Source of the DNA: Marsupella aquatica
Taxonomy: Eukaryota; Plantae; Marchantiophyta
DNA: 64,000 nucleotides
Assembly: GCA_973895155.1 (NCBI GenBank)
Contig: OZ316896.1
Coordinates: forward strand, 3,224,001 to 3,288,000
Direction of reading: 5' to 3'
Positions 36 through 37,909 of the stretch are shown piece by piece. A program made the position numbers and the translations under genes. The notes beneath the pieces were generated by a model that did no database searches, had not been told where the DNA came from, and saw only the letters and a program-made list of their open reading frames with translations. Each line of letters opens with the position of its first letter. The stretch's first letter is position 1.

Positions 36-1717
36 TTGGAGTTAGAGGAGCTCTCATGTGATCGTGTTGCACTACGTGCATGTGCATTGGAAGGAGAAGC
101 CAAACTAAATGATGGACAAAATTTAATTTGGCAACAAGTGAATGATGTTTGTGAGATCATATTGCAAGGTGAATCTCCTCGGGTAAGTATATACATTACT
201 TTTAATGTATTTTGGCATGATAATGATATTTTCTATTTTCACACTACCAATGCTTCTCATGTCTAACTCATGGCTTTTAATTCATCTAGGAGCATCTATT
301 CTTTATTGATGGACCAGGTGAAACTGGAAAGACATTTTTGTATAATCTTCTACTAGCAAGGGTTAGATGTGAGGGGCATATCGCTCTTGCCGTGGCATCA
401 TCGGGGATCCCTCCTTATTATTATAGGGAGGTCGCACGGCACATTTGCGTTTCAAGATTCCACTCATTGTTCACGAAAGCTCTACTTGCAAGTAAGAAGC
501 TGAAATTGTGTTATTATGAAAAGTACTATTATGTGGAATTCTGAGCTATTGGTTTGGTGGATAATATATGAATTCTATTTTTCCCTGATTACTTTTGTGA
601 TGATTGTGTGCACCATAGTAATGGAAAGTGAAGTTGCACGCTTGATCCAATCCGCATTATTGATCATATGGGATGAAGCACCCATGACTCATAGACATGC
701 CTTTGAGGCTATTAGTCGGACACTTCAAGATATCATGAAGTGCAACTTGCCATTTGGGGGAAAATTAATGATCTTTGGTGGTGATTTTTGCCAAGTGCTT
801 CCTGTTGTTCGACATGGAGATCAAGCAGCCATCATTTGAGCCACCTTCAAAAGATCTTCTATATGGTCAAAGATGAAAGTGATGAGGCTAAGTGAGAACA
901 TGAGAGTCAAAACACTAGAAGGTATGTTTTACTATCAATCATTGCTTCAAATGTATATTAAATTATACTTAGTGTGTTATAATTATAATCCTTCTAAAAT
1001 TATATTTTTACTTAGTTTTTGAAATGTTAATTTATTTTAACACTAATAACTTCTCAATGTTGGAATAAGGAAAATGATACTACAGTATGTATAATTTGCT
1101 TCAAAACTTTTGACAACTTTCTTGGATTTTCTTATATATATATAGGACAAGAGGTGCTTGAGCAACAAGGCTTTAGCGATTGGTTACTAGCAATTGGAGA
1201 GGGGATTTTTCCAACAAAGCCTGATTTGGGCGATGATGTCATTTGTTTACCGCATGACTTGATAATGCCAACTGATGATCTTAATGACCTTATTGTTGAG
1301 ATCTATGGCTCAGATCCAATGAACTTCAACAATGTTAACTTTCTAAACGATAGAGCTATCTTGACCACCACAAACAAAGATGTGGATAAGGTCAATGAGG
1401 AGGTGATGTGTGGCTTTCCTGGAGAGGTAAATTCCTTACCACTAGCAACATTAAGAACTTTAAATGTTGTACTTCAAGGAAAATTCTTTCAATGAAAGTT
1501 AGTAACTTTTTTACCATTTTTATTCATGAGTTTTTGCAGGAACATGAGTTTTTGAGTGCAGATTCAATTCCCAATGAAGCAAGTGCTTTCATGTATCCCA
1601 CAGAGTTCCTCAATACATTATTGCCATTGGGGTTACCTCCACACAAGTTGACCCTTAAGATTGGTGCACCCATCATGCTTTTGAGAAACATGAATGGGTC
1701 ACAAGGACAAGCCAATG
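36..1717 (+). pseudogene. Helitron RepHel PIF1-like helicase, 5' exons of the visible portion
   Basis: Motifs FFIDGPGETGKTFLY (Walker A, G>E), VASSGI, IIWDEAPM, FGGKLMIFGGDFCQVLPV, FSDWLLAIGEG, RAILTTTN, GLPPHKLTLKIGAPIMLLRN. GT-AG introns, a frameshift near 410 and an in-frame TGA at 837-839. Confidence 0.92.
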
Positions 1718-3163
1718 TGTCGGATGCCAAATTAGGTAGTAGTTTTAACTAAAGTTTAAAATGGACTAACTATAGTTAGAAGTAACCCCAATTAGAAGTA
1801 GACATAAGGTTAAAGTAAGTAAACTGATGCACAATGGGTCAAGGAGATTAAGTAGGGATAGTTAGGAAGGTCTTAGTTAAAGTCTAGTTGAATTAGGATA
1901 GGTTAGGAAATCTCAAGAAGTAAAAGTAGAAAGTGACAAATGGTCTACTCTGCAGAATTATAGAAAAGTCTCCAAATAGAGTTAAACCTGGAAATCAAGT
2001 AAGTAGATAGTCTTAGGTTCAAGGGACACACTGGCAAAATTTCAGACAAAACAGAGGGCAAGGCACAATGCTGGAGATTTATGAAACTAGAGCTTTGTTA
2101 TAAGTACACTTAAGACGGGATACCATAGAAGTAGGGGTGAGTTCTGAGTACAAAGCAAGTAGTGCTACGGGAGTTTGTCTAGCAGCCAGGTGTCATCATG
2201 GGATTCCTTCTCATAAGGATACAAAATGCAGGGAAAATCTACGTAGAAGCCAAGGAAGGAGCAGCAACAATCAGGCAAAAATTCAAGGGTGTAATTAAGG
2301 GAAATGAACATCGTTCTATAAGGACAATGTGAATTGACTTGGGAGAAGCGAAGGAACCACAGAAATTGCCTGAAGGTAAGGCATGAATTGAATTGAGCTA
2401 CTGGGAGAAACTCTGTGGTGTTGGAAGGAACTCTTGGGATAAGAAAATCTCATCCCCCGAGCAATCTAGTGGTGGCAAAAGATTCAATTTCGTGCCGCTG
2501 CAATTGAAGCTTGGTTGCTAATGCGGAAATTGTTGGTAATTGCCTGAAGCTTTGTATTGTTGGAGTCCGCTGCTGGGGAACTCACTGCTGAAGAGAGTGG
2601 TGTTGTGCTGCCATTGAACTCGTTATGGCCGGGGTTATGGCTGCTGCGCTATTGAGAAGTCCTGGTCCTACTTCACTAAAGCTTGATGCTGCTAAAGAAA
2701 ATTTGATCCTGCTACTCGTTGCTACTTGAACTTGAAGCTGCTGTCCTGGACTTGCTACTAAATAAGAGAAGCTATGTTGCTTCTATGCTGAGAATTGTGG
2801 ATAGAGCATACTGCTGCGAGCTTCTCAGTAAGCTGCTCCAGTGCTGCTGAGTAGCTATGGAGAAGTAGAGCTTGGGAGCTAGGCTGATAGAAGTCAATGT
2901 TGCGGAGGTGAGCTTGCTGATTTATGAGCTATGGAGTAGCTGCCAAGGAGAGCATGAAGCAGCAGCACTTCATCGCTGCTCGCGACTTGTGAAGGGAGGA
3001 GAAAAAAATTGCATTTTGCGAGTAGTCTTCGCGAAAGGAGGAAAAAGGGGTGGTCTTTGCCAAAACTTACCTGGTAGTTGGCTGTCGGCGGCTGGGCTTG
3101 AACTCGCGACCTGCTGTTTGCTAGGGACTTCATTCGGGATACCAACACTAGTAGAAACCGGGG

Positions 3164-3540
3164 GGTATTTAGACCCCATTAAACGACTATTCAGTACCGT
3201 ATAGGACTTGGAAACGACTGGGAAGGACTCCAGTCCTTTATAGGACTATGAGTCGTATGTTTTGTTACTAAAATCAACTGAGTCCTTTATAGAACTGGTT
3301 TATAAGTCGTTTTATAGACTGGATTTTCAGTCTATTGTAGTCTTTGTGTGGGTAGGTTTGGTGAGTCTTTTTCAGTCTTTTATGGGCTGCGATGGTGAGT
3401 CGTTGGGAACAACTCAAAAGGTTATGGAGGGTAGTCTTTAAATATACTTTGTGGGTTTATAAAACGACTAAAGTAGACACTTTGTGGGGGTTTATAAAAC
3501 GACTAAAGTAGACACTTTGTGGGGTATGTACAAGTCTTTC
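3164..3540. repeat. CACTA left subterminal repeats (GACT/AGTC motifs, ~36-bp tandem duplication)
   Basis: Recurrent AAACGACT, AGTCCTTTATAG and AGTCTTT motifs; duplicated CTTTGTGGG..TTTATAAAACGACTAAAGTAGACA at ~3447-3525. Related AGTCTTT motifs at 19300-19420. Confidence 0.7.
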
Positions 3541-4046
3541 ATGTCAACTGGAAATGAGTGATGAAGACCCCACTATACTACTTGGAATGAACTCACTCTT
3601 GTGCACAAATAACACATTTCATTCATGTTTTATTGTGTACTTGGAATGAACTCACTCTATAAGGTCACCATTCACCATGTTAACATTAGAACCTCACACA
3701 AATTTTCAGAAAGCCATCTTCTATACCATGTACACTAATATGAATTCACAGATTCAAACATCATAGACTACAAAGAAGGTCACAAAGCATTCGTCTATAC
3801 CATACACACTAATATTGAATTGATACAAAACAGATTCAAGTATCATAGACAATCACCATAGAGCCATAGTTTGACATCAATCACTTGTTTCATACATACA
3901 GAATTCAGAAATATCAATGTCACACACAACGGCTCCTTCATCCTCTTTACCAAATGGAAAAATTGGTACAGATATTTCTTGGATTTTTCCAAGGCAATGT
4001 CAAAATGTAACACAATTCACATGATTCTATCTACACTTGTATTCAG

Positions 4047-6787
4047 TCACTGCAGACTAACACACTCTGATGGCCAGAGCACAAGAGATCCTACTGCATC
4101 TGCAATTATTTCTTGAGGTGGATCATCGTCTCTATTCGGAAATGGCAAATTACAATCAGATACAATCACTGTAGTCAACAACACTACTACATGGTCATCC
4201 GGGACCACTTTGCCATGGAATTTAGCATGATCCGGTCGCAAAATGCCTGTACCCACACATACCTGCGAGTCATTCTCCCATGATAGAAGATTATGGACTG
4301 GCTCTGCTGTGGCTATCACCTCCACCTTACCCTGGCTGTTTTTCTTGGCTTTCCTGGGTGGCTTATACATGACATTATTCATACCTTGGTTGCGAGTCAT
4401 GACTTTGGCACGAGTGTTTTGTGCTGGTGATCGAGAATTGGCTACACTCTTCTTCAAAGAATCTGCATCCATATTTGACACTTCCGATTGTGTAGCAGGA
4501 TTTCCCTGCGACATCATCTCAGTATCTGCTAACATTGTACTTGCTTCAATTGAAGCATCTACAATCTTACTTGCATCCAATGTTGCTCCCAAGTTTCGAC
4601 GTCGCTTCACCCTGCTCCCACTTGGTTGAGAGTCTGTCAACTCTGCATCAACTACAATTCAATGCATTGTCCAACATAAGTGAATCACTCATCACATGTG
4701 CGCCATGTACATGTCACCATCCACAAAGTTGTCACTATCTCCTTACCATTATGAACAGCCTTCTTCCCCTTCTTTGCCATTGCCATATCCTCCATGTCTG
4801 CTTCTGCTGATCAATAAACAGACCACAAGATTCAGGTTCAATCTATTAACCACTGAATTGTTTCTCAACAATGGTAGGAGAGGAATTTAAAGCATCAGCT
4901 TACCTGATACCTCCTTGGCTATGGTCACTGAGGCACTGGGCACATCTTTTTCATTGCTCTTTGAATCACCTGATACATCAATCATGATGTCACTTCAGTT
5001 CCCAGTTTATCCAACCAATTCTTACAGAAAAGATTACCTCCAACCGGCTTAAGCTTCACAAAACTCCATGCACTTTTCAAATGTAATGTACTGGATCATA
5101 GCAGGTTACTTGTCTCAGGAACCTTTTTGCCATTCTGCTTACTGATTACAGGGTCCAGGTTCTCTGCCTCCACTCTTCCTACATTCAAACCATTCACTCA
5201 ATTCATGAAAACTTACTTCTAACATTTGAACATAGGACACAATGAACAATGGGCCTCTCTTGTTTCAAAATCCTCATTGCATACCTGTGTCAGATTTGCC
5301 AATTCCCTTTTTTGTTAACAAGGGCACACTTTGTACAATGTTGCCCTCATTGTTTGGTTGGGAACCACCCAATTTTTCAATCACAAGCTTGAAATTAGAT
5401 TCCACTGATGCAAGAAGGTTCGCTACAGATGCCTCCACAATATCCAAACGATCAGCCAATTTACTTTCCACTCGAGGGAGTCCACACTCTAATGACTTCA
5501 ACCGTTCAGACATCTCTGTGAGAGTTGTAACAGTTCCCTGTCATAACACAGTTTACATATCTCAGATAATTGTCCCCAAGAACTGGTTGCTTACTTCCTA
5601 CTACAATTCTTTCTGATGCTCAAGGCCAAATAGTCACAGAACATATAGAATTACAACATAATCACCTGTTTGGAAGTCACACTTGTCACCTCACTCCTTT
5701 GTTTCATGAACTCCTCTCTCACTTCTTGTGCTGATGGTTCTTCACCTGTCAATTTCTTCTGCAGTCCACATCAACATACATATGAATGAAACCAAGTGTT
5801 GATTGTCAATGAAAATGTAATAATGGTAGCAAGATGATAAGTTTGAGGCTTACTATCAGGCATGTCACTGCCTTACCAATTGTTCTTTCACTGGAGCATA
5901 ACTTCCTCTCCCAGCCTGTGAAAGGTGTTTCACTTTGCCTCGAGCATTTGACATCAGTTCACTCTTGCTCTGTCCAGCCTCCGACATGAACCCTTTGATT
6001 AACTGTGTCCATTGATCCAGTTCCAATGATGGGGGTGGTGGCATTCTCCTGTTAGAACCATTGTCTATCCACATCCTTTTCAACCTATGCCTTTCTTGTT
6101 TCAAAATCCTCATTGCATAATCTGATATGCAATCTTCAACTGGGCCCTTACCATCATTACCAACATAGTCCCACCGTTCAAGAATGTCCTTGCAGATAGC
6201 AGCCCAATCAGCTTTGTTCTGACTCCTAAACTCTGTAATGCTCAAATCTAACCAACGCAATACTTCTCCTCTTAGGTCAGAATGCCAACGGTTCTTACCA
6301 TCACATGTGGGAGTTATCCAACCTTCGGAATTCACTTCTACTTTACCAAATTTGTTACTGTCTCCTGCCTTGGTACTCCCTGAAGCGCTACTAGGTGTCC
6401 CTCCACGGCCTGGTGTCCCCCCACGGCCTGGGGTCCCTCCACGGCCTGATCTCCCCCCACGGCCTGGATTGCATTGTCCAAACCTCCCTGGAGTCCCTGC
6501 ACATTTACAGGATCCATTTACAGTCACTTACATTAGGTAAGTATGAATCATAAATCCTGCTGCCAAATATACACTGGACTTCAGAGCAATTCTGCAATGA
6601 CCAAGTTACCTCTCCCTTGGCGCATAGATGGTTCTGGACCACCTGTCCTATTGCTTTGTCTTGATGAATTAGGGCCGTTTCTCCCGCCTGTGAATGATTG
6701 CCGCCTATCTGAACGTGGATGGCCTTTGTTGTTTTCGTGATTGTCCCAATCAGAGTCTGCATACCAACAGGTACATGCCACACTCAT
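4047..6787 (-). CDS. CACTA TnpA/Ptta-like multi-exon DNA-binding protein (exon structure approximate)
   Basis: 5865-6527 has QWTQLIKGFMSEAGQSKSELMSNARGKVKHLSQAGRGSYA (Ptta/En/Spm signature) and GTPGRGG repeats. 4047-4640 has FHGKVVPDDHVVVLL..LPFPN..IADAVGSLVLWP (Tnp1/En/Spm C-terminal domain). Several GT-AG bounded exons lie between. Confidence 0.75.
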
Positions 6788-7408
6788 GGACCTGTAAGAT
6801 AAAATCTTTGCCCTAGCTACACATCAGATAAGTCCATATTGAGCTAAATCTCTACTACCATCACAAAATCACTAGCACAAGGCACTTACTTGTCCAATCA
6901 TCCTCCTCACCTTTCCATTGCCTCTGTACCCGTCTCTACCACGCTCTGGGTGTTCATATTCATCCCATCCATCTTCTGCTCCATCATAGTCATCATCATA
7001 ATTATCAGGCGTCCCTTGCCAATAACTCTAGCTCCTTCTAGGGTATGGATTATGTGATTTCTCTCTAGCTGCCCACCTACCTGGGACTTGATGAGGGCCC
7101 TGTGCATCCTGCACAGGTGCATTTTTCTGTGAGCCCCCTGCATCTGGGTCTCCATCCATATCCAATCTTTCCTCTTCACCCCACTCTCCAAGCCCCATGT
7201 CTGTCTCCATGTCATCACCCTCTTCCCCCATAGCTTCTGCACAGCACCCACAACCAAACAGGGAGAATCAGCACACTAAATTCAAAGTATCAATCAATTT
7301 CATGCATATCCAACTATCCTAAACATCATTCCAGGCAGCAATTCCCGTTCTGTGACTCTGTGCAGGTAGTCATCCTCAACCTCATACTTGCCAATCGCCA
7401 GCTGTTGC

Positions 7409-10400
7409 CTATTGCAAATCATCAACCTCATCATATTCCATTTGCCCAGGTTCATCATATGTCTCTCTCAATGTTAAGGGGATGTAGTCAGTCCCTGCCC
7501 GAGTTGGAAGTACAGTCTCATGACTAGGATGCTCGAATGCAGCATGGTCATCCAAACTGAACTCTACTTTACTTCCATCCATCCGCCTGTTCCGTGCTTG
7601 GCTATGGCATACCACCCTCCAGCCATGTGACTCCTCCACATCTGCAAAGAAAGCCTGTTCAACTTGGCTAGGGAAAACAAAAGGCTCAGACCATTCTGGT
7701 ACTCTGGACCTAAAATTGGCCAACAAGAACCCATCATGATCACGCTTCATGGTGGCCCTTGGTCTCTGCCACTCTGATTTCACCCATGATCCCTTCATCA
7801 ATATCACTGGGACACTTGTGTTACCATAATTCAACACCCAAATGTCGGTCAACTCCCCCACGTAACCCATCTTCATCCACCCCCTCTGTTCTTCAGAGGT
7901 TCTCTGCTCAAACACAGAAATCAAACCACAATCATATGATACACAATGGTCACCCTGCTCATCCCTCACTCGATAATGATTTCCATAAGCTCTCATCCAT
8001 TTGTAGGTCAGAATAGACAATCGTGGTGGCACAGATAGAAGATACAAATCCTTCTCCATATCTGGGTGATGTCTACTATGCTCTCGAATTGTCACCCGAA
8101 TCCACTGCTCGAACTGTGGGAAGGGATCCTGCTGCCCAGAGTGTGCAGCTTTTTGCATATCATATTCCCTGCAATATGAGGTACAGGCATAGTTAGGTCT
8201 AAACAACACATGACAACCTAAGATCACCCTTGGAACAGACAAGAAGCATCACAACAAAGGCAAGTCAATTCAATCACTCACCTCCACCATGGTTGCATAG
8301 GCTCTGTGTTTGCCAGCACATATGAATGAGCCTTGTCTCAAATCGCAACAGGCAGCTGAACAGCACGTCCCACACCTTCAACAACCTCGCCACTCACTCC
8401 ATCATCTTCACCAGATTTCCAAACTCTTGTCATAGCTTCACCAGACCCAGCCATGTACTCTGTTAGGAATCCCAACGTCTCATCCTTAATGTACCCCAAT
8501 GCCATGGAAGCCTCTGGCCTGTAGTATGTTCTCACATGACCTTTCAACAACTTCATGTATCGCTCCATAGGGTACATCCATCTGGTACTGACTGGCCCAT
8601 ACTGCCCTAGCTCTTCTACCACATGGATTAGGAGATGAGTCATAACATCAAAGAAAGCAGGGGGGAAGTATATCTCCAAGTCACAGAGGACATAAGCAGC
8701 ATCCTGCTTCAACTGCTCCAATCCTTGGGGATCCCACACTTTCACACATATACGGCGAAATATATTGCACAGTCGAAGAATGACATTACGGACTGGTTTC
8801 TGCATGAGACCTCTGAGGCATAGGGGCAGAATGTGCTACATCAACACATGGTAGTCATGTGTTTTCATACTGCCAAGTTTATTCTTTGTAATATGCTTCT
8901 TGAAGGCACCAGCATAGCCAGAGGGCACTTTCAGACAGCTCAATCTATACAAGAATGTCTTCCATTCATCCTGTGTGCACACATAGGGAGCTTGGAACTT
9001 GAGAAGTACATTGGGATTGCTTGCATGGGGCTTCAACCAAAGGTGAGGGCGAATCCCCTTCTGTTGCATATCAGCTCGAACTGCTCCTGTATCTTTCTCA
9101 CCCGACAAGAACTTCAGCAAGCTCTCACAAATATTTTTCTCAATGTGCATGACGTCCACATTGTGTTTGCTGGGCTCGAATTCCTGCACTCCACAAAGCA
9201 AAGAATTCAACAACAGAAACACTAATTAACCACATAGGAGGATTGTAACCAACATCAATCCACCATTGCTCCAATCTAAAATTGCAATCATACAGGGGCT
9301 GGAGGCTAAGTACATTACCCTCCAGTACTCCAACTCCAAGTCCATCAAGGTCTGTCTTTTCACACCGTGTTTCACCACTGGATCCTCAGGTTCTCGATCA
9401 GTGGCACTTCTCTTGTCCCAATCAGCCTTCCTGGCTGCCCACCTCAGGACTTGCTCTCTGGTGACCCTCTGTGGTGGGCCACAAAGCTCTGTTTTGTTGT
9501 TGAAGTGTGCAATTTGAGACCGTGTGTGCCTGTAAGGATGATCAATAGGCAGATACCTTCTATGCCCCTGAAATTTCATACTGTGCAGGGCATGCGACCA
9601 CTCACTTGTCACATTTTTCCCACATGGTGTGCACCCCACATAGCCCTTTGTCACTCGTCCAGATATGATGCCATGGCCTGGGTAATCTGCTATATCCAGC
9701 AAACAAATTGCATGCAGTCTAAAGGTGCTGGGTCGAAGAAGCCCCTTCAGAACATCATGGGTTAACACCCCTTCTATCCACAAAGTCTTCCACTCTTCCA
9801 CTGCTGGAGCCAACATGATATCTATGAATTGCTCGGTCACAGAAGCTGGTCCAGGGATTAACAGCACCATCATGACAAAACACCTCTTTGTAGTCATCCA
9901 TGGGGGAAGGTTGTAATTTAGCAGCGTAACCGGCCAACATGAATAACGGTTGTTTTTGTCTCCAAATGGGTTTACTCCATCCAGTGATAGACCAAATCTA
10001 AAGTTCCGCTTCTCTGCAGCAAACTGTGGCCACCTCTCATCAACAAATTTCCAATGGTTGGAATCTCCAATGTGACGCTGCAGGCCATCACTGCTCTTGT
10101 TATCAGGAGTCCATGTCATCAGCTTGGAAATGGCAGGGCATCTAAACAGACGTTGTAGTCTAGGAATGAGAGGAAAATGACGAAGAACCTTGGCAGGGTG
10201 TGTACATTTCCCTACATTCTTGTACCTGTGCTTACCACAATGAGGGCATGTCAATTTATCTGCATGCTCTTTGCGAAAGAGAACACACCCATCAGGGCAT
10301 GCGTCAATAGACACATAGTTCAGCCCAAGGTTAGACATCAATTTCCTAGCCTCGTACATACTTTTTGGAATTGAATTACCATCTGGTAACACATTTCGGC

Positions 10401-11109
10401 GCAGGAAGGTCAACAACTCTGTCACAAATATATTGGGAACATTGTGATTGCCATAGATGTTCAACAACAACACGACAAAACCCAGCTTGGAGTAGTTCGA
10501 CCCCTCGTAGATAGGAATGCAAGCTTCTTTGATGTGTTTTGGGCCCCCAAACACCCACTCCCTCTCTGCTGCACCTTCCCCAATGTCAAAGTCAGGTTCA
10601 GCTTGGCCGTCGCCAATGTGTGGCTGCGGTTCATTGTCCTCTTCTGATTCCACTGTGTCGTAAAAAGCATCAAGGTCTTCAAAAATCTCTTGAACCATTC
10701 TTGGGACATCCATCCCACCGTCCTCAGTGACTGCCTCTCCATCTCCATCTTGGTCATCCACGTTCTCATGTTGGACCCCAGGACCATCCTCTGCACAGTC
10801 TATGTCCTGCTCTACGTAGTCTCTATGCCTAGCTGTATTAGAATCCACAAAGTCAGCTCTCCACTCTTCATCAGAGGAGTCTTCTTCTGCTGGTACATTC
10901 CAAACCCTCCACCGAGGGTGCCTTTCATGCCGCAGCAGGTGAAGGTGCACAGTGTTCAAACTCAACGACTTGAATCCTTGGCACTGTGTGCATGGGCATC
11001 TCATCCTCCTACTCCTACCTTGGGCGGCCCGGGCTTGTTCACGCATCCACAATTTAGAATCATGATGCCTAATCCTAAATGGGTTGTGAAGAGGCAACCT
11101 TGGAGCCAT
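7409..11109 (-). pseudogene. CACTA Tnp2/TnpD transposase (transposase-associated Zn motif, Transposase_21, DUF4218- and DUF4216-like), two nonsense mutations
   Basis: CPCTQC, IDACPDGCVLFR, LRHFPLIPRLQRLF, GLSLDGVNPF, WPVTLLNYNLPPW, DVMHIEKNICE, FPPAFFDVMTHL, RWMYPMERYM, EPFVFPSQVEQAFF. Intron 9318-9184. In-frame TAG at 8836-8838 and TGA at 8338-8340. Confidence 0.93.
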
Positions 11110-11435
11110 CACTATACACACGCACTCAGCACCCTGTCATTTTATTATGCAAGTGAAAAATACACTTCCTGTTAAGGATTTCACCCCCGACTGTACTTGC
11201 CAAAATACGTAACGTTCCAAAAAAACAAAAAAACAAAAAATATAGGTGCCTGAGTCATGTACCTATTCTCAAGTGAATGAGACAAAATTCCTAAATGTTT
11301 GAGGGTGTCAACTCCTCCACTGTCCTCACATGTACTGCCTCTGCACGTACATCCATGACCATATCAGAGTCCAATCATGTATAGTCATAGACACAGGTGC
11401 CAGGTGCGAGACCGGTGTGAGATGTCCTCATCTTA

Positions 11436-11969
11436 CTACCACATCAAATACGGATACCAATCCTGTTGTCGATGCCACTCAGCCCTGAGGTACTCAGGCA
11501 TGTACATTAAGTCATCAAGGTCTAAACCCTGCTCATGCCATGGTGGTCTTCGATCCGTGCCTACAAGCAGTGGCAGTAGTGCCCTCCATGGTGCACATGT
11601 TGCTACCAAGTCCCTCCACTGGGTACTAATTAGTCTATATTTGCAGATATCTTGTGCGCCAGACACCACAAGAACCCTCGGCCAGACATGTGTAAGAACT
11701 ATATCATCCGCCAAATCAGGCAACAAGGAACCACCTACAGCATCGTGCTTGTCTAACTCATCTGCTGAAAAGTAAATGTCCTCTTCCGACTGTGCATCCT
11801 CATTCACCACAGCATTCACAACACATCCAAGGTCTGCAGGCATTATCTCGGATGGAGCTACACTCTGTCTGGTTACCAATCCACACAAGTAAGCCCAAGC
11901 AGTAGCCATGCACGATGCAACCCGTAGGAGGACCCTACATAGGGCCTGACGGTCTGGAAGAGGCAGCAT
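11436..11969 (-). CDS. F-box-like protein without a recognisable substrate-binding domain (CACTA cargo)
   Basis: LLPDLADDIVLTHVWPRV..DICKYRLISTQWRDLV fits the plant F-box pattern LLPGLPDD..L..L.RV......R.VS..WR.L. Intact and intronless; first ATG at 11969. Confidence 0.65.
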   Translation of the reverse strand: MLPLPDRQALCRVLLRVASCMATAWAYLCGLVTRQSVAPSEIMPADLGCVVNAVVNEDAQSEEDIYFSADELDKHDAVGGSLLPDLADDIVLTHVWPRVLVVSGAQDICKYRLISTQWRDLVATCAPWRALLPLLVGTDRRPPWHEQGLDLDDLMYMPEYLRAEWHRQQDWYPYLMW

Positions 11970-12145
11970 ACCCACCAAAGTCTTCAGCCAAACAGAGCCC
12001 AGCAAGTAGATTCACAGTCACACCCCACGCAGCAGGAAACAACAATCACTTCAACTGCGACCAACCATGACAAGATGAGTTAGTTCAAGGATCACATTTA
12101 TTACAAAATTGTGATTTATACAAAAATATGAGGGACTCCTACTCC

Positions 12146-12994
12146 TCACTCTCTCCCACCTTTGCTAAGCATACATCTCCGCTGAATCTTGGAGGGCCAG
12201 GCCTCAAAAATATCAAAGTCCCAAGCATTCTGTCGCTTCCCTCTAGCTGCTGATTCCAGAAGCCAATCAGGGGAAAGCACCCAAAGATTGTTGTTCATGA
12301 CAAAATCACGCACTGTTGTCTTAAAGAATTTTCTGCATATTTTCATGTATGACAGACCTACAACATGAGTGGAGGTTTCTGTTAGACTCTCCTCCACTGT
12401 CCCACCTAGCTCAACAACTATAGACTTGTACAATCTGCACTTAGTCTCCCCAATTCCTTCTTCTGCAAATACCACACTGAACCCCTTCATAATGGTATTT
12501 CTCTCCTTGCCATGCTCATTCAATATAGCATCTGCACGCATAGGATGGTGTCCTATGTTGACAACAGGTCCATATTGGACAGAAGCAAAGTTGGGTTTCT
12601 CTGCCGCTGCTTCATAGGCTTCCTTTTCAGCCAAAGCCTCTGCAGTGGCCTCCTCACTCTCCCACAACTCATATTGCTCAGTACTCTGTACACACCTATG
12701 TTTAACAGAATCGGTCAGCCAAGAGACTTCAACTACTTTTAGACCTTGGTTGGTAATGGCAGAATCAATGAAGGACCATGACCACTTGTTCATCACATCC
12801 AGCCATGTCCCCGCAACAACATGTGTAGTCTGTGGAGTGATGTCCTTGACTTCAGTCCCATGGAACTTTGAGAATCGTTTTTGTACGATTGACCAACTCA
12901 CTTGGGTGAACCCATAGTGGCCAGGAATCAAAATGGCTTTGATTCCAGCCAACAGAGGCGGGTGGTCAACCTTTGTACGTTTCCTAGAGGCCAT
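12146..12994 (-). CDS. Tandem BRCT-domain protein (CACTA cargo), 282 aa
   Basis: Two BRCT repeats: FHGTEVKDITPQTTHVV..VVEVSWLTDSVKH..EQYEL and LGGTVEESLTETSTHVV..VLSPDWLLESAARGKRQN. Basic N-terminus SRKRTK. Intact, with AATAAA about 50 nt past the stop. Confidence 0.85.
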   Translation of the reverse strand: MASRKRTKVDHPPLLAGIKAILIPGHYGFTQVSWSIVQKRFSKFHGTEVKDITPQTTHVVAGTWLDVMNKWSWSFIDSAITNQGLKVVEVSWLTDSVKHRCVQSTEQYELWESEEATAEALAEKEAYEAAAEKPNFASVQYGPVVNIGHHPMRADAILNEHGKERNTIMKGFSVVFAEEGIGETKCRLYKSIVVELGGTVEESLTETSTHVVGLSYMKICRKFFKTTVRDFVMNNNLWVLSPDWLLESAARGKRQNAWDFDIFEAWPSKIQRRCMLSKGGRE

Positions 12995-13592
12995 GTACAC
13001 ACGGGCCACCTAATCACTGCAGACCGGAAGATAATGCGTTCACCTGATAATCGGAGGGCCCTTAAAATGCTGCGTTTATAACTTGGTCCAGTCCAGTCGT
13101 CTGGTGAGTCTTTGCTCCGATTCCAAACGGGAGAAATATTGGGACAAACGTACTAGACACCTGCAAGCATGCACCTCATAGTTTGAATATGTGCCTTCAC
13201 AATATTGAAGGTGACAAGTGCAATTGTTTTGTGATGCCACATACAGATGTTATAAATGGGCAGACATTCAATGAGAATACAAAATGTTGGTACACTTTAA
13301 GGGAATTCTCGCAAATTAAATAGCCTTGTAACTTATATGCTCATAATGAGAAGTCCTGATTTAATTTAAGCAGTGTCATGTAAGTCGTGATCAAAATGAT
13401 TGCAGAGTTAAAAAAGTTCCTAGAAGGCTTAAGGGGAGTTTTTGAAGGCATGTACCCAGGAACAAGTAATGAACTTAGGGTACTTGTTGCCTAAGCATCC
13501 TCTCCTACAGAGGTCCTTCTTCTCAAAATTGGAATGTCTGCAATCTCCAAGGTATCCACATCAGGTGCACTATGCATGTACATTATTCAGGT

Positions 13593-14262
13593 TCAAAGCC
13601 AAGAAATGTGATCTCTCATGGGAGTGTGCAAAGTAGGATCTATGGCATGGCGATGACAATAGAAGATCCATCGATCAACACCATGTGCAGAGTGATCATA
13701 GATGTGTCTGTCACAAGCATAGCCTTCTGCTTGACGCTCCTTCAAACAATGAAAGTGCCACATGGTGGGACACCTAACACAGTGGACTATGTCCACCCAG
13801 AAATCTTCATCGTGCTGACCACATGCCTTGCACTTATGAAGTGGGCAAGCTGTGGCAAGATCGGGCAAACATGAAAAACAAAAGAACCTCACACAATATC
13901 TGTCAGGGCATTTCCTAACAAGTGGTGGAGCATCAACAGAGCCCTCATAAGACCCCAACTTCCCACACTGTGCACACTTAGCCTGCTTCTCCAAACAATC
14001 AGTGCACATCCAGCCTCCCTGGTGTGCCCACCCCTGGACAGTTGTTTTCTGCAGCAAGGTCAGACTCCGGGTTGAGGTGGAAATGCCTCATGCAAGGGCC
14101 CTCACATATGGCTAAGCCACCACCATCGTCACAAATGGCACAACAATGAGCTGCCTTCTGGAAAATCTGACTTGCGGAGAAGTTACTACCATCTGGCCCA
14201 ACTACACCTGTGTTGCTCACCTCTGTCCCCCGCTTCTTGGCTCGGATTTTAGGGCGTGCCAT
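13593..14262 (-). CDS. EDM2-like composite PHD-finger protein (CACTA cargo), one frameshift near 14010-14030
   Basis: CAICDDGGGLAICEGPCMRHFH..WMCTDCLEKQAKCAQCGKLGS..CPLHKCKACG..CVRCPTMWHFHCL..IFYCHRHAIDPTLHTPMRDHISW. This parallels the plant EDM2 PHD region as I recall it (CAICDNGG..CEG.CLRSFH..CPLHKC..CRRCPKSYHRKCL..LIYC..HEID..L.TP.RDH). Confidence 0.82.
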
Positions 14263-14931
14263 GCCTACGCATGAGACAGATAGTACAATTTAGCAGAGTG
14301 CACAGACAATACAATTTAGTGCAGTGTACAAAAAGTACAGTGTAGCATATAGACTAGAGTGGCAATTGCTACTGCAATGAAATGTTCACACACATGTGCA
14401 GAGTAGACATACTTTTTGGTTTGTTGAGCCCACACTAAAAACTGATCCCCTCGTACAATAGCTCCACCTACACCTCAATTTTGTGGCTATGATTCACCAA
14501 AGGAGATCTGCAACAAGATTTAATGCATTTGAATCACATATAACAGTCGTGACATGTAAAACAGGCATTTTTTGAATAGGATTGGTATCAAGCACTGTGA
14601 TCAGGGTTGTAATTTATACATCCTAAATAGGCTATGATAGTGAATGAGACAAATAAGTTAGGCATAAATCACTTTTTCCAGGTTATCACATGGCCCATTA
14701 ATTCCAGTCTTTGAAAGAAGACTTTTAAGTGAGCTTGCTAGCCTCTTAAATTAGGATATTGTACTTAGTGCAGCCATAATAGGATAAGTTATGTACTGTT
14801 GACCCTAAACCCTGGACCCAAAATTGGTCATAATTCAAAATCTTAAGTAAATATCCTCTCTGTTCAAGTCAAAGTGTTAAGTTATAGGTCAATGGTCTCT
14901 GGTTTGTGCATGCGGTGTGACAAGTGGTCCT

Positions 14932-15381
14932 CTAGAGCGTGTGATCCAAACATGTGTAGACACCAAAGTGACCGGTGGTGGGGTCTGGGAGGGCAGGACA
15001 AGTGACATCGCCAGGCACACTGCAGGATGGCGAGTGGTTCCAGATGATACATTGTGCTCTGTGAAAAAACCGACATCCAAGAGAACGGTCATCCAACTCT
15101 AGGCCAGAAGCCCTACAGGCAGGACAGTCATATTGGCAACTGTGCACACACCCTTGGGCCCTAATTTGTGGCGGGTCATGTACTAGAGACAGAAATACCA
15201 AGGATGTTGGGAAGGGTGGAGAAGCAGGTACAGGCCGGCTGTAGTTGTTCCTGGCAACAACTGGGTACTCAAAGTACCATGCAGACTGGGCTGGAAGGAT
15301 CCCAAGTCTGACATACTCAAGGCGCAACATCTCTGCCTTGCGTGCAAGCCGCACATGTTCAGCGTTGCGGGTCCTCACCAT
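14932..15381 (-). CDS. Hypothetical Cys/His-rich protein (CACTA cargo)
   Basis: ATG-initiated 149-aa ORF, co-oriented with the other cargo. Contains CVHSCQYDCPAC, CRFFHRAQC and a basic N-terminus MVRTR. No family recognised. Confidence 0.45.
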   Translation of the reverse strand: MVRTRNAEHVRLARKAEMLRLEYVRLGILPAQSAWYFEYPVVARNNYSRPVPASPPFPTSLVFLSLVHDPPQIRAQGCVHSCQYDCPACRASGLELDDRSLGCRFFHRAQCIIWNHSPSCSVPGDVTCPALPDPTTGHFGVYTCLDHTL

Positions 15382-17744
15382 AAGTGTTGCTTTTGTGGAG
15401 ATGTCGTGTGTTCACGTCCTCTGATAAGCACCTTCGATCAGCAAGGTGAGCAGGAGCTGTACTTGCCTCACCAACAACAACCAAACCTTAAATTATCAGT
15501 TCCCACTCACTGTGTCATTCCATTGGTTCCAGCTAGGGGTCACAGTGTAAACATAGCATGAAACACTCCTAATCAACTTGCTTACAAACTACAATATCCA
15601 GAAAGAGTGAAAGTCTCACCCTCCAGTGAGCAACAGAGAGGTAGTTCAGTAGATGTGTTGATGTGCAGTTAAACCTCCACTATTGCTTACTTCTGGTGTA
15701 TGCTGCTCAGAAGAAGACATATTAGTAGCAGCAAATTGCAAATAATGGCCATAAGCAAACCGTGAGAGTTTGCAGAATGCTACGACAAATCCATCACAAC
15801 AGTGCTCCACAGGAATGAAACCAAGCAAAATTTGGTGACCTCGGCCAATGACAAGGCCAATGTAGTGAACAATCCTTGACCGATCAGGATATGGATTGGA
15901 ATTACAATTAGTCAGCTCTTCTTCTTTGTTTTCTAACTCTGGGGGAAATGAGCATGACCAGGGAATTCTCTGAGAAATAGAAGAATCGCTAAGTACAGTA
16001 TTCTTAAGAGTAGTTTTGTTCTAATTCTGAAATCTACACATAGGACATTTATCATGAAAACTGAAGATCCATTTGACAACTCCATGATAGCCTATTCCGC
16101 ATTGTGTCCGCCCCATGCAAGCAAGGGGTATTCATCCGAGCTTAGTCTAACCATGCATGATTGTTCTGGAAGCAGTTGCGACAATGTTTTGGTTTTTTTC
16201 TCCTATCCAACTCAATAGCTCACAAACATGGCATTGGACCCATTAACAAATTATACTTGCCATCATTCTCAACTGTATTACATGGCCCACACTGCTAACA
16301 TCCCTGACTCTTAAGGGAAACTCATCTCCTGGGCCAACAACATCTCAGATTCTACAAAAATGAGAAACTATGAAAACTTCTTGATCTCCTATCCTGTGAT
16401 TGTAGCATGTATGATTTGCTGGGACTGCAGGCAGTTCTGGACCTTGCTGCGCTTTATATACAACAACCTGAGCTCCATGAATTTGTTTTTAATAGACATG
16501 CGTTTGACCACGGCTACAACTCCAAAACAATCACCAAATCAAATCATAACAAAACCCACTCGAAAGCTGAACACTAGAACACTGGGCACTGGGAACACAC
16601 TCAAACAGGTTCTGCAAGGATGGCTCTCTGTCGGATCGACTAGAGAATCAGGCAGGCTTCCTATTATGGTCTGCTCAGAGCCTTCCACTCTGGATTAGAC
16701 TCTGAATCCAAATGCGAGTCTACGCTTTCCGTTGCTGGTCACAACGACGGGCAATCAGGATGATGCCATGCCGAGTAGAAGAACAAGAAAGCATTCCATA
16801 AAAGGCACTGAGATGAACCGTATAGTAAAAGTGGTAGTACTTCCGGTAGCACGACCGACTCGCTATGTGACAGTCCAAAGAAAAGCTAAAAGGCTGAAAG
16901 GTGATAGATTTTGTGCTCAATGTGACAGGTTTTTTGAAATGATCAAGCCAAGGTGCAAAGGAAAACTGATTGAAGGTGACATGGGAAAGTTGTCAATGCA
17001 GGAGAAACTCTTGCCTTAGAGTAACCGTGTAACCAGGTAACAATGCAGGAGAAACTCTTGCCTTAGAGTGCTCGACGCTCCTTCAGCTGGATAGGGGCAG
17101 CTCCAACTACACGGTCTGGTCCAATCACCGCCTGCTTTGTTACAAGAAGGTGGACTAAGCCACAGCTGACGTCAATCACACTGTAAAAAATGGACAGATG
17201 AGCCATGTCACGAAAGCATATATAGTCATTCCTCAATATTAAATGAGACTATGAGAGGGCATATATAAGTTCACGACTAGGAAAGAGTCTCACCTTGTAG
17301 CACGGAGATTCTCAAAGCGCACCAAGATGAGTCATTGTAGCAGGTGAATGTTGGGTGGTGTCATGTAAGGCGCAAATCAATAGCTCGCTACCTCCTGTCT
17401 CCCCGTCTGTCTCCCGTGCACTTCTACCTCCCCGTCCGGCTTCCCGTCTGTCTCCCACGTACTTAAATTGAAGTTTTAACAAAAACTGTCAACACCAAGT
17501 GCAGCAAATGCCAACATATTCACACGGCAGAGCATAAAAGTAGTCACAGTTCATGAATCAGTTCCCTATCGAATCATGGGCACTACGCCGAGCACTGCGC
17601 AAGAGACTAGGATAGACACTGCAAACATGGGGACTTTTGTTTGGCAAGAAATCTGGACATCAAACCTTCAGCAATGGCAACAGGAAGCATTACATCAAAC
17701 GAGAGGACATCAAATGAGCAGTCCGGTTATAGGCAAACGGCGAC

Positions 17745-17807
17745 TGACATAGCGGAGGGAAAAAATGCGCATTGACATAGCGGACATGCGCACATTGACA
17801 TAGCGGA
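17745..17807. repeat. Three direct copies of TGACATAGCGGA
   Basis: Exact 12-mers at 17745, 17773 and 17796, in the CACTA 5' non-coding region. Confidence 0.85.
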
Positions 17808-20800
17808 GGGGAGAAAAACTACAAAGCCAACTAACCTTTTTAAGGCCCACAATTTCAAGGGGAGGGACAAAGAGAGCAAGCACTCCAATCTCTTCAATCC
17901 CTTCTGCAAGTAGCCGCCAAAATCTACTTCTTGGGGTCCAGCCCACGGATGGAGATCATGCAAGGTGGTCAATCACAGTAAGTGCAATCGTTGCAATCCA
18001 CAAACAAGCTGCAAATGAAGACACGCAGGAGGGAAAGTCCGCAACACCAACAACATTACCCTTTGTAAAACCCCGAGCTTATCTTCTAGTTGCCAACGCT
18101 CAAACAAAACCTGCTCGGACACTACCAAAACCCTAATTCCATAAGCTCTCACCTTTGCGACACAACTCCTGCACTATATTCAGCTGGCGTTGGCCCACTC
18201 TAAGCTCCCAAGCTTCACTTTAGTCCGCGCCGCGACTAAAGTTTCACTGCCTCTGTGAGCTTTGCAGTCCACCTTACAGATCGAACAAAGCAATCACCTC
18301 CCTTCACATCCGCACTAATCACCTTTCGCAAAGAGTTGCAATCACCTTCCGCAATACCAGGAAGCTTGCTCCCTCTCGTTCAATGCCTTCTGCAGCATGA
18401 GCGATCACCTCTGCCGAAGCAACTTCAATCGAACACACAGCAACGGGGCGGGCAGCGACAACATTGACAGTGAACGATGGACTCTACTCAAACAACCTCA
18501 AAGCTGTCACAAAAGAACGAGGAAACATTGAGGCAGAAAACAAAGTCCCTAGCGCTAGGCAACCAAAGTATCGGGAAACCAAAGGATCGGGACCAAAGGA
18601 AGGGACGACATGGCATTCCAACAACGGGAAGGGGGAACGGGACGCGGGAACGGGCAATTTTTTGATGGTGGGGATGGATGCCAACGATCCAATGGTCCCT
18701 AAACCCCCATCCCCTTAACATGCAACCCCCGACCCTTCACATCAAACCCCCCCTTAACCCCCTTTAGTGAAAACCCAGCCACCCCCTAGCCTTGACATAT
18801 AAACCCCCTAATGTGCTTAGGACAACTCGACTGTGGCCACACTATGTTTGCAATGCCAGGGTCATCCATTTAGAGCGCCGCTTGCAAGCTTTGGTTCTCA
18901 AGATCCTCCCAAGGCAGCAAACAAGTTAGGGTTCACGGTCCATGTTCCTTTACCCTAAACCGTTGCGTCACTATTTCAATCGAGTGTTCTTCGGCTGGAC
19001 GTGCCCCTTTACTGACCCACACCCCCTTGAGACCGGTACAAATCTACCTTTGTGCATCTCGGCCTTTTATAGATGGATTTAGTAATGGCCAAGAATATGT
19101 TGACCATCCCTCTGTAGTCCACCCTCCATGAACCTCACTTCATTAAACCCAAAATCTTTTTGGTCACAAAATAAGGCCATTTAATGAGTTATGCCCCTTG
19201 CTATCACCCTCTTTATAGAATTACCCCTCCTCAGCATAAGTGGTCATTACCCATGATGTGCTAGACTATTCATCCTTCACAAAGTAGCAAGGTTACTTTT
19301 CATAGTCTTTTAGTGAACCATAAAACACTAATAGTCTTTTGTAGTCTTCAACAAAACCGGTGCAATGGGTATGAGTTGTTTTAAGTATGGAAAAAGGACT
19401 TAGTGGGCTTAGTCCTATAAGGTATGGTCTAAATTGCCCCGGTTTCTACTAGTGCAAGGGAGCGTTCTTAGCTCTTCGTTTAAGAAGTTTGTAGCAACTC
19501 TACTTAACCTTGTGGCAGCATTGGTTCTGAGCCGTTTGAAGGACTTTGAGGCCGGGTCTAGGCCAGCAGGGGGACCAGGGAGACCAGAGGAGGGCCCAGC
19601 AGGGGTGCCTCAACTTCATGGAGGCCCGGGAAACCATTTTTTATCCCAATAGGATATGCTAAGGAGTTTTCATGAAGGCTTGAAAACCACTATTTGTAAT
19701 AAGTTGTCGGGCTATTATGAAGCCCAACACTTGAGGGGTGCTGGTATACGATGAGTTGTTGCTAGATAGCTCAGCCTTGCACTCGCATAGTAGCCATAGA
19801 ATAACTGCTAATGCCAACATTCTAGTTGGAACCAACTCAAGCGACAGTTGTACTATTCAGGTAAGTTTACAACTGTGTAAAAGCTGACCTGTACTTTTGT
19901 GGTAACCCGAGTCTCAGCGGCAAAACCTGTGACTCAGTGGTAACCTGAAACTCAGTGACGTATTAACCCTCAGTTGTAGGTCAAACTTGGAGTTGATACC
20001 GTGAGAAATATTGTGTTCAGTTAGTTTACAACTCGCGCGGTTAGTTGTAAGAGTTACCAAAGGGGGTACCCTGGTTACTCGTCTTGCCGAGAGCTAGGTT
20101 GCCGCTGTTCAGGTCTTGTGTGGAAACCAGAGTACTGGTTGTAGTTAAGTTAACCTGCGGTAAAATAGAGATTTAACCCGAGTTAAACTTTAGCAAGAAA
20201 GTAGTAAGTTTGCCGTAACTACTAACCTGAGTTAGCACCTTAGGCTTGGTTTGGTTTGGCGTGGGTTTGGTTTGGAGCCCTGAGGTGTAGAAATAAAGAG
20301 GAGAAGCAGGGGGCTGTGTTCTCACTTGTTTAGTTGTCCACTTTCTTAGAGGCTGGGAGCTTGGGGGCTGGGCTCTTCCTTGGAGAGCAGCAGCATGAGC
20401 TTGAGGCACTAGGAAGGGGGGAACAGTGAACTAGTCCACTAGGTAGGCAGCAAGGAGAAGGTCAAGGGAGGTGTTGTGATCTGAACTTGTTTCTATTCTC
20501 TCTAGTAAAGACTTGCGTGTAACCCTCAGTCTTGAAGCAGCTGTCTAGTGAGATGTTGAACTAGTGAGCATGTATGTGGACTCAGGTGTGATTTGATATC
20601 GGAGAGATGAAGCTTGAAGCTTGAGATGAGAGCAGGGTCAGCACTTGTCTTGTTGGGATAGCAAGTGGTAATCCTGCAGTCCTTTGTGAAGGAAATAGGG
20701 TACTCTCTTGGGTGACGATTAAGGAGTGCAGGGACAGCTTGTGGGTGTCCACTGCCCGTGTTGAGATCGGGAGTGGGGTGTTGGGAGTGTTTTCCAGTGG

Positions 20801-21027
20801 GAGAGCAGGGGAGTGATAACCACCCTTCAAGGTTATCTTTCCAGCGGTGGAAGTAAAATTACCCAATTGGGTGTGTGAGTGAAGAAGAAGAGAGAGATTA
20901 AGGGAAAGTGACCTACTGTCCTACTATTTGCCCGTCCTAGGAATCCGGACAACGATAAGAAGGGGCAATAGTGGTAGATTTAACTCTAGTGAAGAGTTAA
21001 GCCCCATTGCAAGGTGTTGACACAATG

Positions 21028-21407
21028 GCACTCGCTTGATAGTTCGTGGTTTTGGGCGTCATGTCATAGATGCAGAAATTATCACAAGGAAGAACATCGG
21101 AGATCGTGTTTTTATTCCACGCATTCCTCTTATTGCATCTGACTCAGGGTTACCATTCGATCTTTGACGATTTTAGTTTCCTATCCGTGTTGCCTTTGGT
21201 ATGACCATCAATAAGTCTCAAGGTCAAACCTTGGCAAAGATTGGGATATTTCTACCAAACCCGGTTTTCTCGCATGGTCAATTATATGTGGCATTGTCTA
21301 GGGTTGGTGCTCGGAGTGGCATTCGCATTATGATATCAAGGAATGCATATCCTGATAAGCATGACCTTTACACAAGGAATGTTGTATACCATGAGATTTT
21401 GAGATGA
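21028..21407 (+). pseudogene. Helitron helicase, final exon
   Basis: GTRLIV..RVFIPRIPL..FPIRVAFGMTINKSQGQTL..VFSHGQLYVALSRV..TRNVVYHEIL. In-frame TGA and TAG around 21166-21177. Confidence 0.93.
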
Positions 21408-23313: not shown

Positions 23314-23660
23314 TGTTGAGCATAGACGACAATTGCAACGGTAAGCACATGACACATCCAACGATCAAGTAGTCGACACAAGAGATACGTGGTTCACCTC
23401 CTTGAAGCTACGTCCACGGGAACACACAAGAAAGTTTTACTGAACTCTAAGCCTGTCGGCTAAACCAAGTCTCCACAGTGTAAGCTCTTCTCATCTCTCA
23501 AGTGACTCCGTAACAATGAGCCTAAGTTCCACTTATCCAAGCAAACACCGCTTGACATATAGAGTGCATCCTAGTTAACCTAACCATGTCTCTGACTACG
23601 GTTAATCTAACTACGGTTAATTACATGTTGTAACCCTAGACCTTGAGTAAATACCTAACA
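23314..23660 (-). mobile_element. Copia-type solo LTR (347 bp)
   Basis: TGTT..AACA termini and TSD CAGCT (23309-23313, 23661-23665). Reverse complement of the LTR at 25316-30374. Confidence 0.9.
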
Positions 23661-36672: not shown

Positions 36673-37909
36673 TCAATAGATGTAGGGCATTGACCTAACA
36701 GAATTACTAGAATCATTCTTCAGCATCGCTTGGAGAATTTGTGTCATCATCAATGACACCTTCAGGCAATTCAACCTGTTCATGCAAGTGTCGGTGAAAC
36801 AATCTCTTGGCCAGCTCCACATGCATTGAATGTGACCCTGCTCTTCAAAGCTTGAACAAAGATAAATTTCATTTGTGAGTTTAATCACAACATTGTCATT
36901 GTCATCTGCTAATCCAGCTGTATGTATGAATTCTTCCATATCAATTGTAGCTCTATTCACCTCAACCTGTGCATAAGCAAACATTTTCATGGTCCCAGCC
37001 TGTCTTAAATCCCCAAAATTGCAAGACATTGCTCCTGCAACCACAGTTTTGCATCTGATACGAGCTACTCGTCTCCAGAATCCTTGTGCATAATACATAA
37101 TTTATGCAGACATATAATGCTCTGACAACGTCAACAACATGATCGGTCTTCATTTCTATGCGTCTCAATACAATTTGCCACTTGCCTTTCAAAATGGAAT
37201 ATACATACAAGTTTGGATGAGATATGCAGCATCACCTATGAGTTTATATAGACAGAAATCTCCCCTGGCTACTAGTTTTCCTTCCCATCACTGAGTTTAC
37301 AAATACGGCGTAGTCATGTAGAGAACCTGCCCATCCGAAGTCATAATCCCAAAATGTTGTTTCAGTGTCCACAATACCTTGCAAGAGAACAGAATAAAAC
37401 CCCTTTCTGTTATATATGGAAAGGTGCCGGATCCCCCTCAGGGGCCATGATGGGAATGTGAGAGCCATCTATGGCTTCCATAATAAAAGGCAACCCATAC
37501 TTATCCTCAAACTGGGCTGCTAAAATTTTCAGGATTCTTAAGTCCATTTTGGAACCGCAAGTGGACAAATGTATTTCAACACGGCTTGACAGAATTGTCT
37601 CACAACAATACATGCCAAGCTTTCGCTCATTCTGAATAGGTCAGCACATCCAAGCCAGTAGTTACCTGTACATAGTCTGTTCAATGATAAAGCAACCCTC
37701 TTTTCCAATGAAATTTCTCCACCCTTTTTTGACTTCTGCATGTCTTGGGCAACTAGAGAACAGAGGTAAAAAATTGTGGAAGGTTTGACTCGTAACCTTC
37801 TTGCGAACTCTTTCTCAGTATGGGAAGTCAACAATGTTCTATCCACAAATGGAGATTCACGGTCCAACCTCCAAATGGATCTCTCACGTCCGTCTTTTCT
37901 GTGTCCCAT
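36673..37909 (-). pseudogene. PIF/Harbinger DDE transposase (DDE_Tnp_4/HARBI1-like)
   Basis: FARRLRVKPSTIFYLC, ISLEKRVALSLNRLCTG, AIDGSHIPI, YNRKGFYSVLLQGIVD, GWAGSLHD, LIGDAAY, ILKGKW. Multiple frameshifts; the segment with the third catalytic residue appears deleted. Confidence 0.9.

Follow-up and report, generated by a model that had tools for sequence, protein, structure and literature searches.

A two-BRCT gene in a cargo-carrying CACTA element of the liverwort Marsupella aquatica

The CACTA element and its surroundings

The window analysed here, i.e., the whole 64,000-nucleotide stretch of Marsupella aquatica DNA, contains a complete CACTA/EnSpm element of 16,309 bp (3146-19454), all of whose open reading frames (ORFs) lie on the minus strand. 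The left terminal inverted repeat (TIR; 3146-3163, plus strand) is 18 bp long, begins with CACTA and perfectly matches the 18-bp right TIR (19437-19454, minus strand), and the target-site duplication (TSD) CAA stands on either side of the element (3143-3145 and 19455-19457). The corresponding empty site is found in contigs of three of the four runs (X1, X2 and X5), which join 3142 to 19455 and skip 16,312 bases, that is, 16,309 + 3. The CACTA-initial 18-bp TIRs, the 3-bp TSD and a Tnp2 transposase assign the element to CACTA/EnSpm and bear out the CACTA setting proposed in an earlier note on this DNA. Read from the right end on the minus strand, the element encodes a 149-aa Cys-rich ORF, a PHD cassette, a BRCT ORF, an F-box-like ORF, Tnp2 and Ptta-like pieces.

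CACTA elements of the maize En/Spm type encode TnpD and TnpA. Here, the Tnp2/TnpD transposase gene lies in several pieces at 7409-11109 (minus strand; Transposase_21, E 2e-59, with DUF4218 and DUF4216). It is interrupted in the window by an in-frame TAG (8836-8838), and all four runs show another base at 8838; because the stop is private to the window copy, this copy is probably dead, while the CACTA family is not. Pieces of a probable TnpA/Ptta-like gene are found at 4047-6527 (minus strand), with a weak, below cut-off Transposase_24 match (E 0.009) in 5868-6527. The remaining ORFs are cargo-like. The PHD-finger cassette (13593-14262, minus strand) is NSD-like and is spread over two frames overlapping near 14002-14087 (Pfam PF23011, E 5e-6; PF23004, E 2e-5; PF22908, E 0.004); in the window copy, this triple PHD cassette changes frame near 14050. 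We take it to resemble EDM2, a reader of H3K9 methylation, and it could by itself be an anti-silencing cargo. Its depth in the runs is 2-4 times the element level, which implies that PHD paralogues exist. Directly downstream of the BRCT ORF lies a 177-aa ORF (11436-11969, minus strand) with a weak F-box match (Pfam E 0.082, below cut-off), and a 149-aa Cys/His-rich open ORF without Pfam match, also cargo, occupies 14932-15381 (minus strand).

Summed depth in run X1, which is not a copy number, reaches 1,738-7,737 over 3084-15931 as against 186 in the left flank; taken with the empty site, this raised depth indicates a repeated element family. An internal segment (15932-18851) is present in a minority of copies. 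Its depth is about one quarter of the element level in X1, and runs X2, X4 and X5 show even less. Most element copies hold other sequence at this place, with loose ends near 15983 and 19015. Compared with four long X1 contigs, the window copy shows 15 differences over 4,076 bases, i.e., about 0.4% from the majority form, which marks it as a young copy whose intactness alone says little. CpG is depleted (observed/expected 0.26 in the BRCT ORF and 0.33 in Tnp2) and CHG is not; the low CpG of the BRCT ORF would fit long residence in methylated DNA.

Elsewhere in the window, pieces of a PIF1 helicase flank the region at 504-1750 (plus strand; Pfam E 1e-25 and 4e-13) and at about 20990-21400 (plus strand; C-terminal part, by eye), probably the remains of a Helitron broken by an insertion that the CACTA element then entered. 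Two stretches of ~1.9 kb with 33-42-bp imperfect inverted repeats (23513-25461 and 26012-27971) are likely small TIR elements, and a 99-bp tandem repeat lies at 28947-29325. A Harbinger-like transposase fragment, recognised by eye (37538-37909, minus strand), and long coiled-coil ORFs without clear family (50634-53151, plus strand) probably belong to other mobile elements. Probable host genes are an intronless secreted-protein gene at 42220-42627 (plus strand), whose product is presumably STIG1-like, an intronless germin-like cupin gene at 46051-46761 (minus strand; E 4e-34) and an AIG1-type GTPase gene at 62643-63893 (minus strand; E 3e-8). Taken together, the plant-type Tnp2, the two intronless genes (germin and STIG1-like) and the loss of CpG without loss of CHG would suit a land plant of early divergence, such as a liverwort.

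The two-BRCT gene and its family

The BRCT ORF (12146-12994, minus strand) is a single exon running from ATG to TGA (12994-12146) that encodes 282 aa with no internal stop, and the plus strand of this interval holds no open frame and many stops. The earlier note had described an intact 282-aa ORF without giving a strand, and this holds for the minus strand. Pfam BRCT (PF00533) matches the product in two stretches (E 9e-14), and AlphaFold2, with an 11-row alignment, predicts two BRCT folds at aa ~13-113 and ~167-266. Repeat 1 (aa 13-113; 12656-12958, minus strand) carries the family-typical W64 and W73 in a split alpha-2; it is followed by a helix (aa 114-132; 12599-12655, minus strand), whose T..[LI].EK pattern is conserved in most members, and by a low-confidence linker (aa 133-164) that leads to repeat 2 (aa 167-266; 12197-12496, minus strand). 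The whole-protein model, built on a shallow alignment, has a mean pLDDT of 73.8 and a pTM of 0.45, while repeat 2 modelled alone reaches 89.9 and 0.81, respectively. Alpha-2 is split into two helices in both repeats of the predicted fold. Assignment to the BRCT fold is supported by the Pfam match, the models, Z scores of up to 16 against solved BRCTs and the alpha-3 tryptophans W92 and W244. The two repeats are only 17% identical to each other, in agreement with the two diverged BRCT repeats of the earlier note, and the motifs quoted there for repeat 2 are present in the sequence.

The protein starts with a basic stretch, RKRTK (aa 4-8; 12971-12985, minus strand), and the family members P0002 and P0003 start with a similar one. 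The NLS-like start claimed earlier is therefore there as a basic stretch, and its role would be that of a nuclear localisation signal. Neither a lyase (8-kDa) nor a polymerase domain was found by Pfam in the ORF or in the 16 family matches scanned, all of which hold BRCT alone; the description of a catalytically empty, duplicated BRCT within a CACTA element fits both this domain content and the anatomy of the element. A viral fold library yielded nothing at E<=0.001, and matches in the ESM Atlas were generic BRCT clusters, all below 0.9.

A phmmer search over 1.84 billion representatives returned 17 matches at E<=0.001, of which 16 form one family. The 17th, a 931-aa multi-BRCT protein (E 5e-4), is the only non-family match; among these representatives, no close copy of the protein turned up as a conventional tandem-BRCT gene of a host, which would have counted against the earlier note. 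The family matches comprise five full-length two-BRCT proteins, one that is N-terminally short and ten with one repeat or less, and cluster look-ups added three further full-length members. This gives eight distinct full-length relatives of 264-321 aa and 17-61% identity, each called as a single ORF, and no informative or host-gene name occurs among the cluster members read. Some half-length members may be contig ends. Two truncated members are nearly identical to full-length ones (P0008/P0021, 97.7%; P0013/P0024, 98.2%), and a 1.4-kb metagenome contig found with P0024 (locus L001) carries an in-frame TAG in the linker; such near-identical twins and this stop are what a gene that is both repeated and decaying would leave.

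In a tree of 18 repeats, from which the near-duplicates P0019 and P0020 were left out, eight of nine second repeats fall in one branch (support 97/94), which indicates that the repeat duplication is old and shared. The phylogeny of each repeat suggested in the earlier note is answered to this extent, the tree being one of family repeats only. The linker measures 41-58 aa in 10 of 11 rows and 19 aa in one, P0023 (cluster 8), which differs from the other members in having two repeat-1-like units. None of the relatives has been placed in a CACTA element, since the sole locus fetched, L001, is 1.4 kb long and holds the gene alone. Searches of viral contigs (queries A1, P0007, P0024 and P0021) and of genome contigs (queries P0023 and P0007) gave no family locus. 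Word-index protein searches were insensitive: P0001 retrieved one relative, the A3 profile gave two matches and missed most of its own members, and repeat 2 of P0007 gave nine candidates with one weak unrelated match; none of these searches has a bearing on the question of Pol lambda.

Constraint on the gene differs with the depth at which it is read. In a neutral simulation (substitutions only) carried to the distance between P0001 and P0002 (~61-62% identity), both frames remained free of stops in 0 of 2000 cases, with a mean of 6.8 stops; open frames across such deep divergence indicate that the family has been under selection. G46, W64, W73 and W244 are invariant in alignment A3. The frame is open in other element copies as well as in the diverged relatives, so the doubt raised earlier as to conservation among copies does not apply. 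Variants listed from the runs (40 of 85 rows) comprise 11 synonymous, 29 non-synonymous and no nonsense changes, and indels in the BRCT ORF among the rows listed total 3 bases, in one X5 contig. With 21.9% synonymous changes expected at random, this amounts to a crude dN/dS of ~0.7, each base being scored alone and the rows being selected for support. These recent variants show weak constraint on the BRCT ORF.

A second BRCT gene, ~83% identical at the DNA level, is present in X1 and X5 at a depth about equal to that of the window type (in X1, 1,608-2,018 vs. 1,768-1,931). No doubling of depth is seen for Tnp2 or for the element ends at a mapping likeness of 85%, and it would be simplest if most copies of the element carried this second paralogue as well. 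The loose ends of this second gene read in frame by eye. Runs X7 and X8 cover 7 and 10 of the 30 bins of the BRCT ORF, respectively.

Kinship with known BRCT proteins

The earlier note saw in repeat 2 a resemblance to the BRCT of Pol lambda, and this likeness holds in part, at the level of sequence profiles. Queried against the PDB, the whole protein or repeat 2 alone gives a weak BRCA1 match and no Pol lambda at E<=10. Family profiles reach the human Pol lambda BRCT (2jw5) at E 1.6e-5 (A3) and 2.3e-6 (A4), and two hand-picked subsets that lean to Pol lambda-like rows, and hence do not provide fair rankings, at E 1.5e-7 (A5) and 8.9e-6 (A6); with all four, 2jw5 ranks behind REV1 and multi-BRCT chains, BRCA1 or PARP4 being ahead. 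With a profile of all ten repeat-2-type sequences (A7), 2jw5 obtains 36.4 bits (E 3.9e-8) and leads the next single-BRCT chain by 9 bits; profile positions 5-97 match residues 43-133 in nearly colinear fashion, and the chains ranked above 2jw5 sum several repeats. The best single domains with A7 are BRCA1 repeat 1 (31.6), Rad4 (23.3) and Rtt107 (22.2), and the per-domain score of 2jw5, estimated at ~31-32 from the ~5-bit gap seen for REV1, makes a rough tie with BRCA1 repeat 1. All PDB chains matched by the A7 profile are BRCTs from proteins of genome maintenance. For Pol lambda, these comparisons were made on the human BRCT; the plant orthologue presumably looks closer to repeat 2.

Structural searches do not favour Pol X. 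The comparison with BRCT classes advised by the earlier note recovered BRCT folds, but placed PARP4 and XRCC1 ahead of Pol X. Foldseek with repeat 2 lists XRCC1, Rev1 and PARP4 first, with Pol mu 15th and TdT 40th, and a VIA structure search is led by PARP4 (Z 16.0; rmsd 1.4 over 93 aligned residues) and XRCC1 BRCT2 (Z 15.2), with no Pol X chain among the 50 entries listed. Likewise, no Pol X protein occurs among the 17 phmmer matches. Repeat 2 and Pol lambda (2jw5, 9g9l) share a nearly colinear profile match, a long alpha-2 region and a basic stretch before the BRCT, and K/L/Y of repeat 2 may fall at the R57/L60/F61 register, whereas the present protein has two BRCTs and no polymerase or lyase domain, its Ku-contact pair is not conserved in the family, and Pol lambda is not among its top structural matches. 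A single-BRCT repair protein may have been the donor of the repeats, with Pol lambda as the leading candidate, a derivation to which we give slightly less than even odds.

In human Pol lambda, R57 and L60 are described as key contacts that dock alpha-1 between Ku70 and Ku80 (PMC12056208). K185, L188 and Y189 of repeat 2 align with R57, L60 and F61 if the first 23 profile positions are ungapped, a register set by the HMMER end points. Among the family repeats, the first contact position is basic in 9 of 24 and the second hydrophobic in 12 of 24; both occur together in 4 of 24, against ~4.5 expected if the columns were independent. Other carriers of the pair are P0002 and, on deep branches, P0012 and P0014; repeat 1 of the 282-aa protein has no basic residue at the R57-like place and no clear register. 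It appears unlikely that repeat 2 retains Ku docking.

A phosphoserine pocket is defined by S/T-G in the beta1-alpha1 loop and T/S-x-K at alpha-2 (PMC10386641). In the BRCA1 register, none of 25 family repeats has the full signature; the corresponding positions read P-G and S-W-S in repeat 1 and E-G and F-x-K in repeat 2. Canonical tandem BRCT proteins (BRCA1, MDC1 and plant BCP3/4) share the two repeats with the present protein, and the score of BRCA1 repeat 1 is roughly level with that of Pol lambda, but here a long low-confidence linker separates the repeats and the model shows no fixed head-to-tail packing (pTM 0.45, shallow alignment). The C-terminal BRCT pair of DNA ligase IV likewise has two BRCTs and a long helix-containing linker and provides the top Foldseek matches of the whole model (E 3e-11). 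However, a TM of 0.29 and an rmsd of 22 A indicate that this likeness reflects spacing only; the sequence match is weak (E 3.5e-5), and the linker is at most a putative XRCC4 binder.

Possible roles of the cargo protein

Altogether, these findings led to a reading in which the ORF is an intact cargo gene of the CACTA element and encodes a non-catalytic two-BRCT protein of an old, likely transposon-borne family, a likely nuclear adaptor or decoy for host break-repair proteins. We put the probability of this reading at about 0.4. The protein would act in the nucleus and bind host proteins through phospho-independent surfaces, and these partners would be host DNA-break-repair proteins. Two points make repair factors the likeliest partners: the profile relatives of repeat 2 all serve genome maintenance, and the BRCT of plant Pol lambda reportedly binds Lig4/XRCC4, the polymerase being active where transposons have excised (PMC4444747). 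Each of the two loosely linked domains would have a partner of its own, held by the conserved tryptophan surface in repeat 1 and by the alpha-1 helix in repeat 2; with such a loose tether and different conserved faces, the protein could well be a bridge or a decoy. Since chromatin, transcription, and PAR or DNA binding are further fields of action of BRCT domains, a repair partner is a prior rather than a result. Cut-and-paste transposons depend on host end-joining to mend their own breaks, a repair that plant Pol lambda reportedly helps to shape, and an adaptor or decoy would likely benefit the element at this cut-and-paste step. The diverged relatives would also sit in transposons.

A more specific proposal is that repeat 2 is a Pol lambda-derived BRCT whose alpha-1 still fits the groove of the Ku70/Ku80 bridge, so that at breaks left by CACTA excision the protein rivals Pol lambda or takes its place. 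CACTA elements of early-diverging land plants would then have acquired the BRCT with which Pol lambda docks on Ku, doubled it and kept the product as an accessory. At breaks made by the element, this accessory would fill or span the Ku70/80 site used by Pol X and so steer donor-site or end repair. We consider both the docking and this history unlikely. The rank of 2jw5 as best single-BRCT chain with A7 and the K185/L188/Y189 register, with its pair recurring in P0002, P0012 and P0014, speak for it, as does the reported dominant-negative effect of catalytically dead Pol lambda, exerted through R57 in human cells (PMC12056208), and the NLS-then-BRCT start matches the reported layout of AtPol lambda (PMC4444747). 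However, the pair is no more frequent than independence predicts and is absent from repeat 1, its register comes from HMMER end points, PARP4 and XRCC1 BRCT2 lead the structural list, profiles other than A7 give REV1 or BRCA1 a higher score than Pol lambda, and Pol X is missing from the 17 phmmer matches.

Other partners are conceivable if the neighbouring ORFs are taken into account. In an anti-silencing or chromatin module, the PHD cassette would read silenced chromatin and the BRCT protein would be a substrate adaptor for the F-box-like protein, or a scaffold, with chromatin or ubiquitin-ligase partners and not end-joining ones. The PHD, BRCT and F-box-like ORFs are indeed consecutive on one strand upstream of Tnp2, extra paralogous depth is seen over both the PHD and the BRCT regions, and VANDAL elements are known to encode accessory proteins that counter silencing (PMC10398659). 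Yet mere proximity of genes proves little, the F-box-like ORF is only weakly matched and the PHD cassette of the window copy changes frame; we hold this module to be quite improbable. We hold the same low expectation of a lineage-specific host gene family captured fairly recently by the CACTA lineage, with selection acting on the host genes and the element copies drifting. Gene capture by CACTA elements is well known (PMC13317346), recent variants are weakly constrained, and no relative has been placed in a CACTA element, one 1.4-kb locus having been fetched. Against such a capture, all relatives are single-ORF genes, 10 of the 16 family matches reach half length at most, although nearly identical full-length twins exist for some of them, the cluster members read include no named host gene, and two diverged types occur at element-level depth in two organisms. 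Finally, that the gene is passive, functionless cargo, intact only through the youth of the insertion, would agree with the ~0.4% divergence and the dN/dS of ~0.7, but as an account of the whole family it appears largely refuted by the neutral simulations and by the eight full-length relatives, which keep W64, W73, G46 and W244 invariant although identity falls as low as 17%, and is very improbable.

The reading as an adaptor or decoy carried by the element can be set beside known cargo and accessory systems. The element shares with CACTA/EnSpm and Pack-CACTA elements the CACTA TIRs, the 3-bp TSD, Tnp2 with DUF4218/DUF4216, a probable Ptta-like second gene and captured extra sequence. It differs from them in its size of 16.3 kb, in its four extra ORFs and in that the BRCT cargo is a whole open gene of a deeply diverged family and not a host fragment. 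Like VANC and other TIR-transposon accessory proteins (VANDAL, MURB), the two-BRCT protein is an extra protein encoded beside a transposase; its fold is unrelated to theirs, and their functions have been tested, whereas the two-BRCT protein is known from sequence. The plant TIR accessory proteins described in the literature examined have silencing or the transposase as their target. Of 775 CACTA clusters surveyed across 1,007 plant genomes, one is listed with a BRCT-named accessory domain, RTT107_BRCT_5, an entry known by name, without traceable sequence (PMC12973397 Table S6; elements <=12 kb). The term BRCT is absent from the main text of that paper and of PMC13317346 and PMC13547354, PMC10787897 contributes nothing regarding this BRCT, and a full-text literature search, with subscription journals and Repbase outside its range, did not turn up any report of a CACTA element that carries a BRCT gene. 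In the literature searched, the two-BRCT family is apparently undescribed as a protein family; tandem-BRCT proteins described from plants are BCP1-4 (PMC11014961). The element is apparently a cargo-carrying CACTA of a new form.

The BRCT-only protein encoded by the element, small and simple to express, is a concrete candidate for direct action of a transposon on DNA repair. If the Ku-docking reading were true, a eukaryotic cut-and-paste transposon would encode its own end-joining modulator; even if the link to Ku fails, there remains a diverged two-BRCT family in a young, multi-copy element, beside PHD and F-box-like neighbours.
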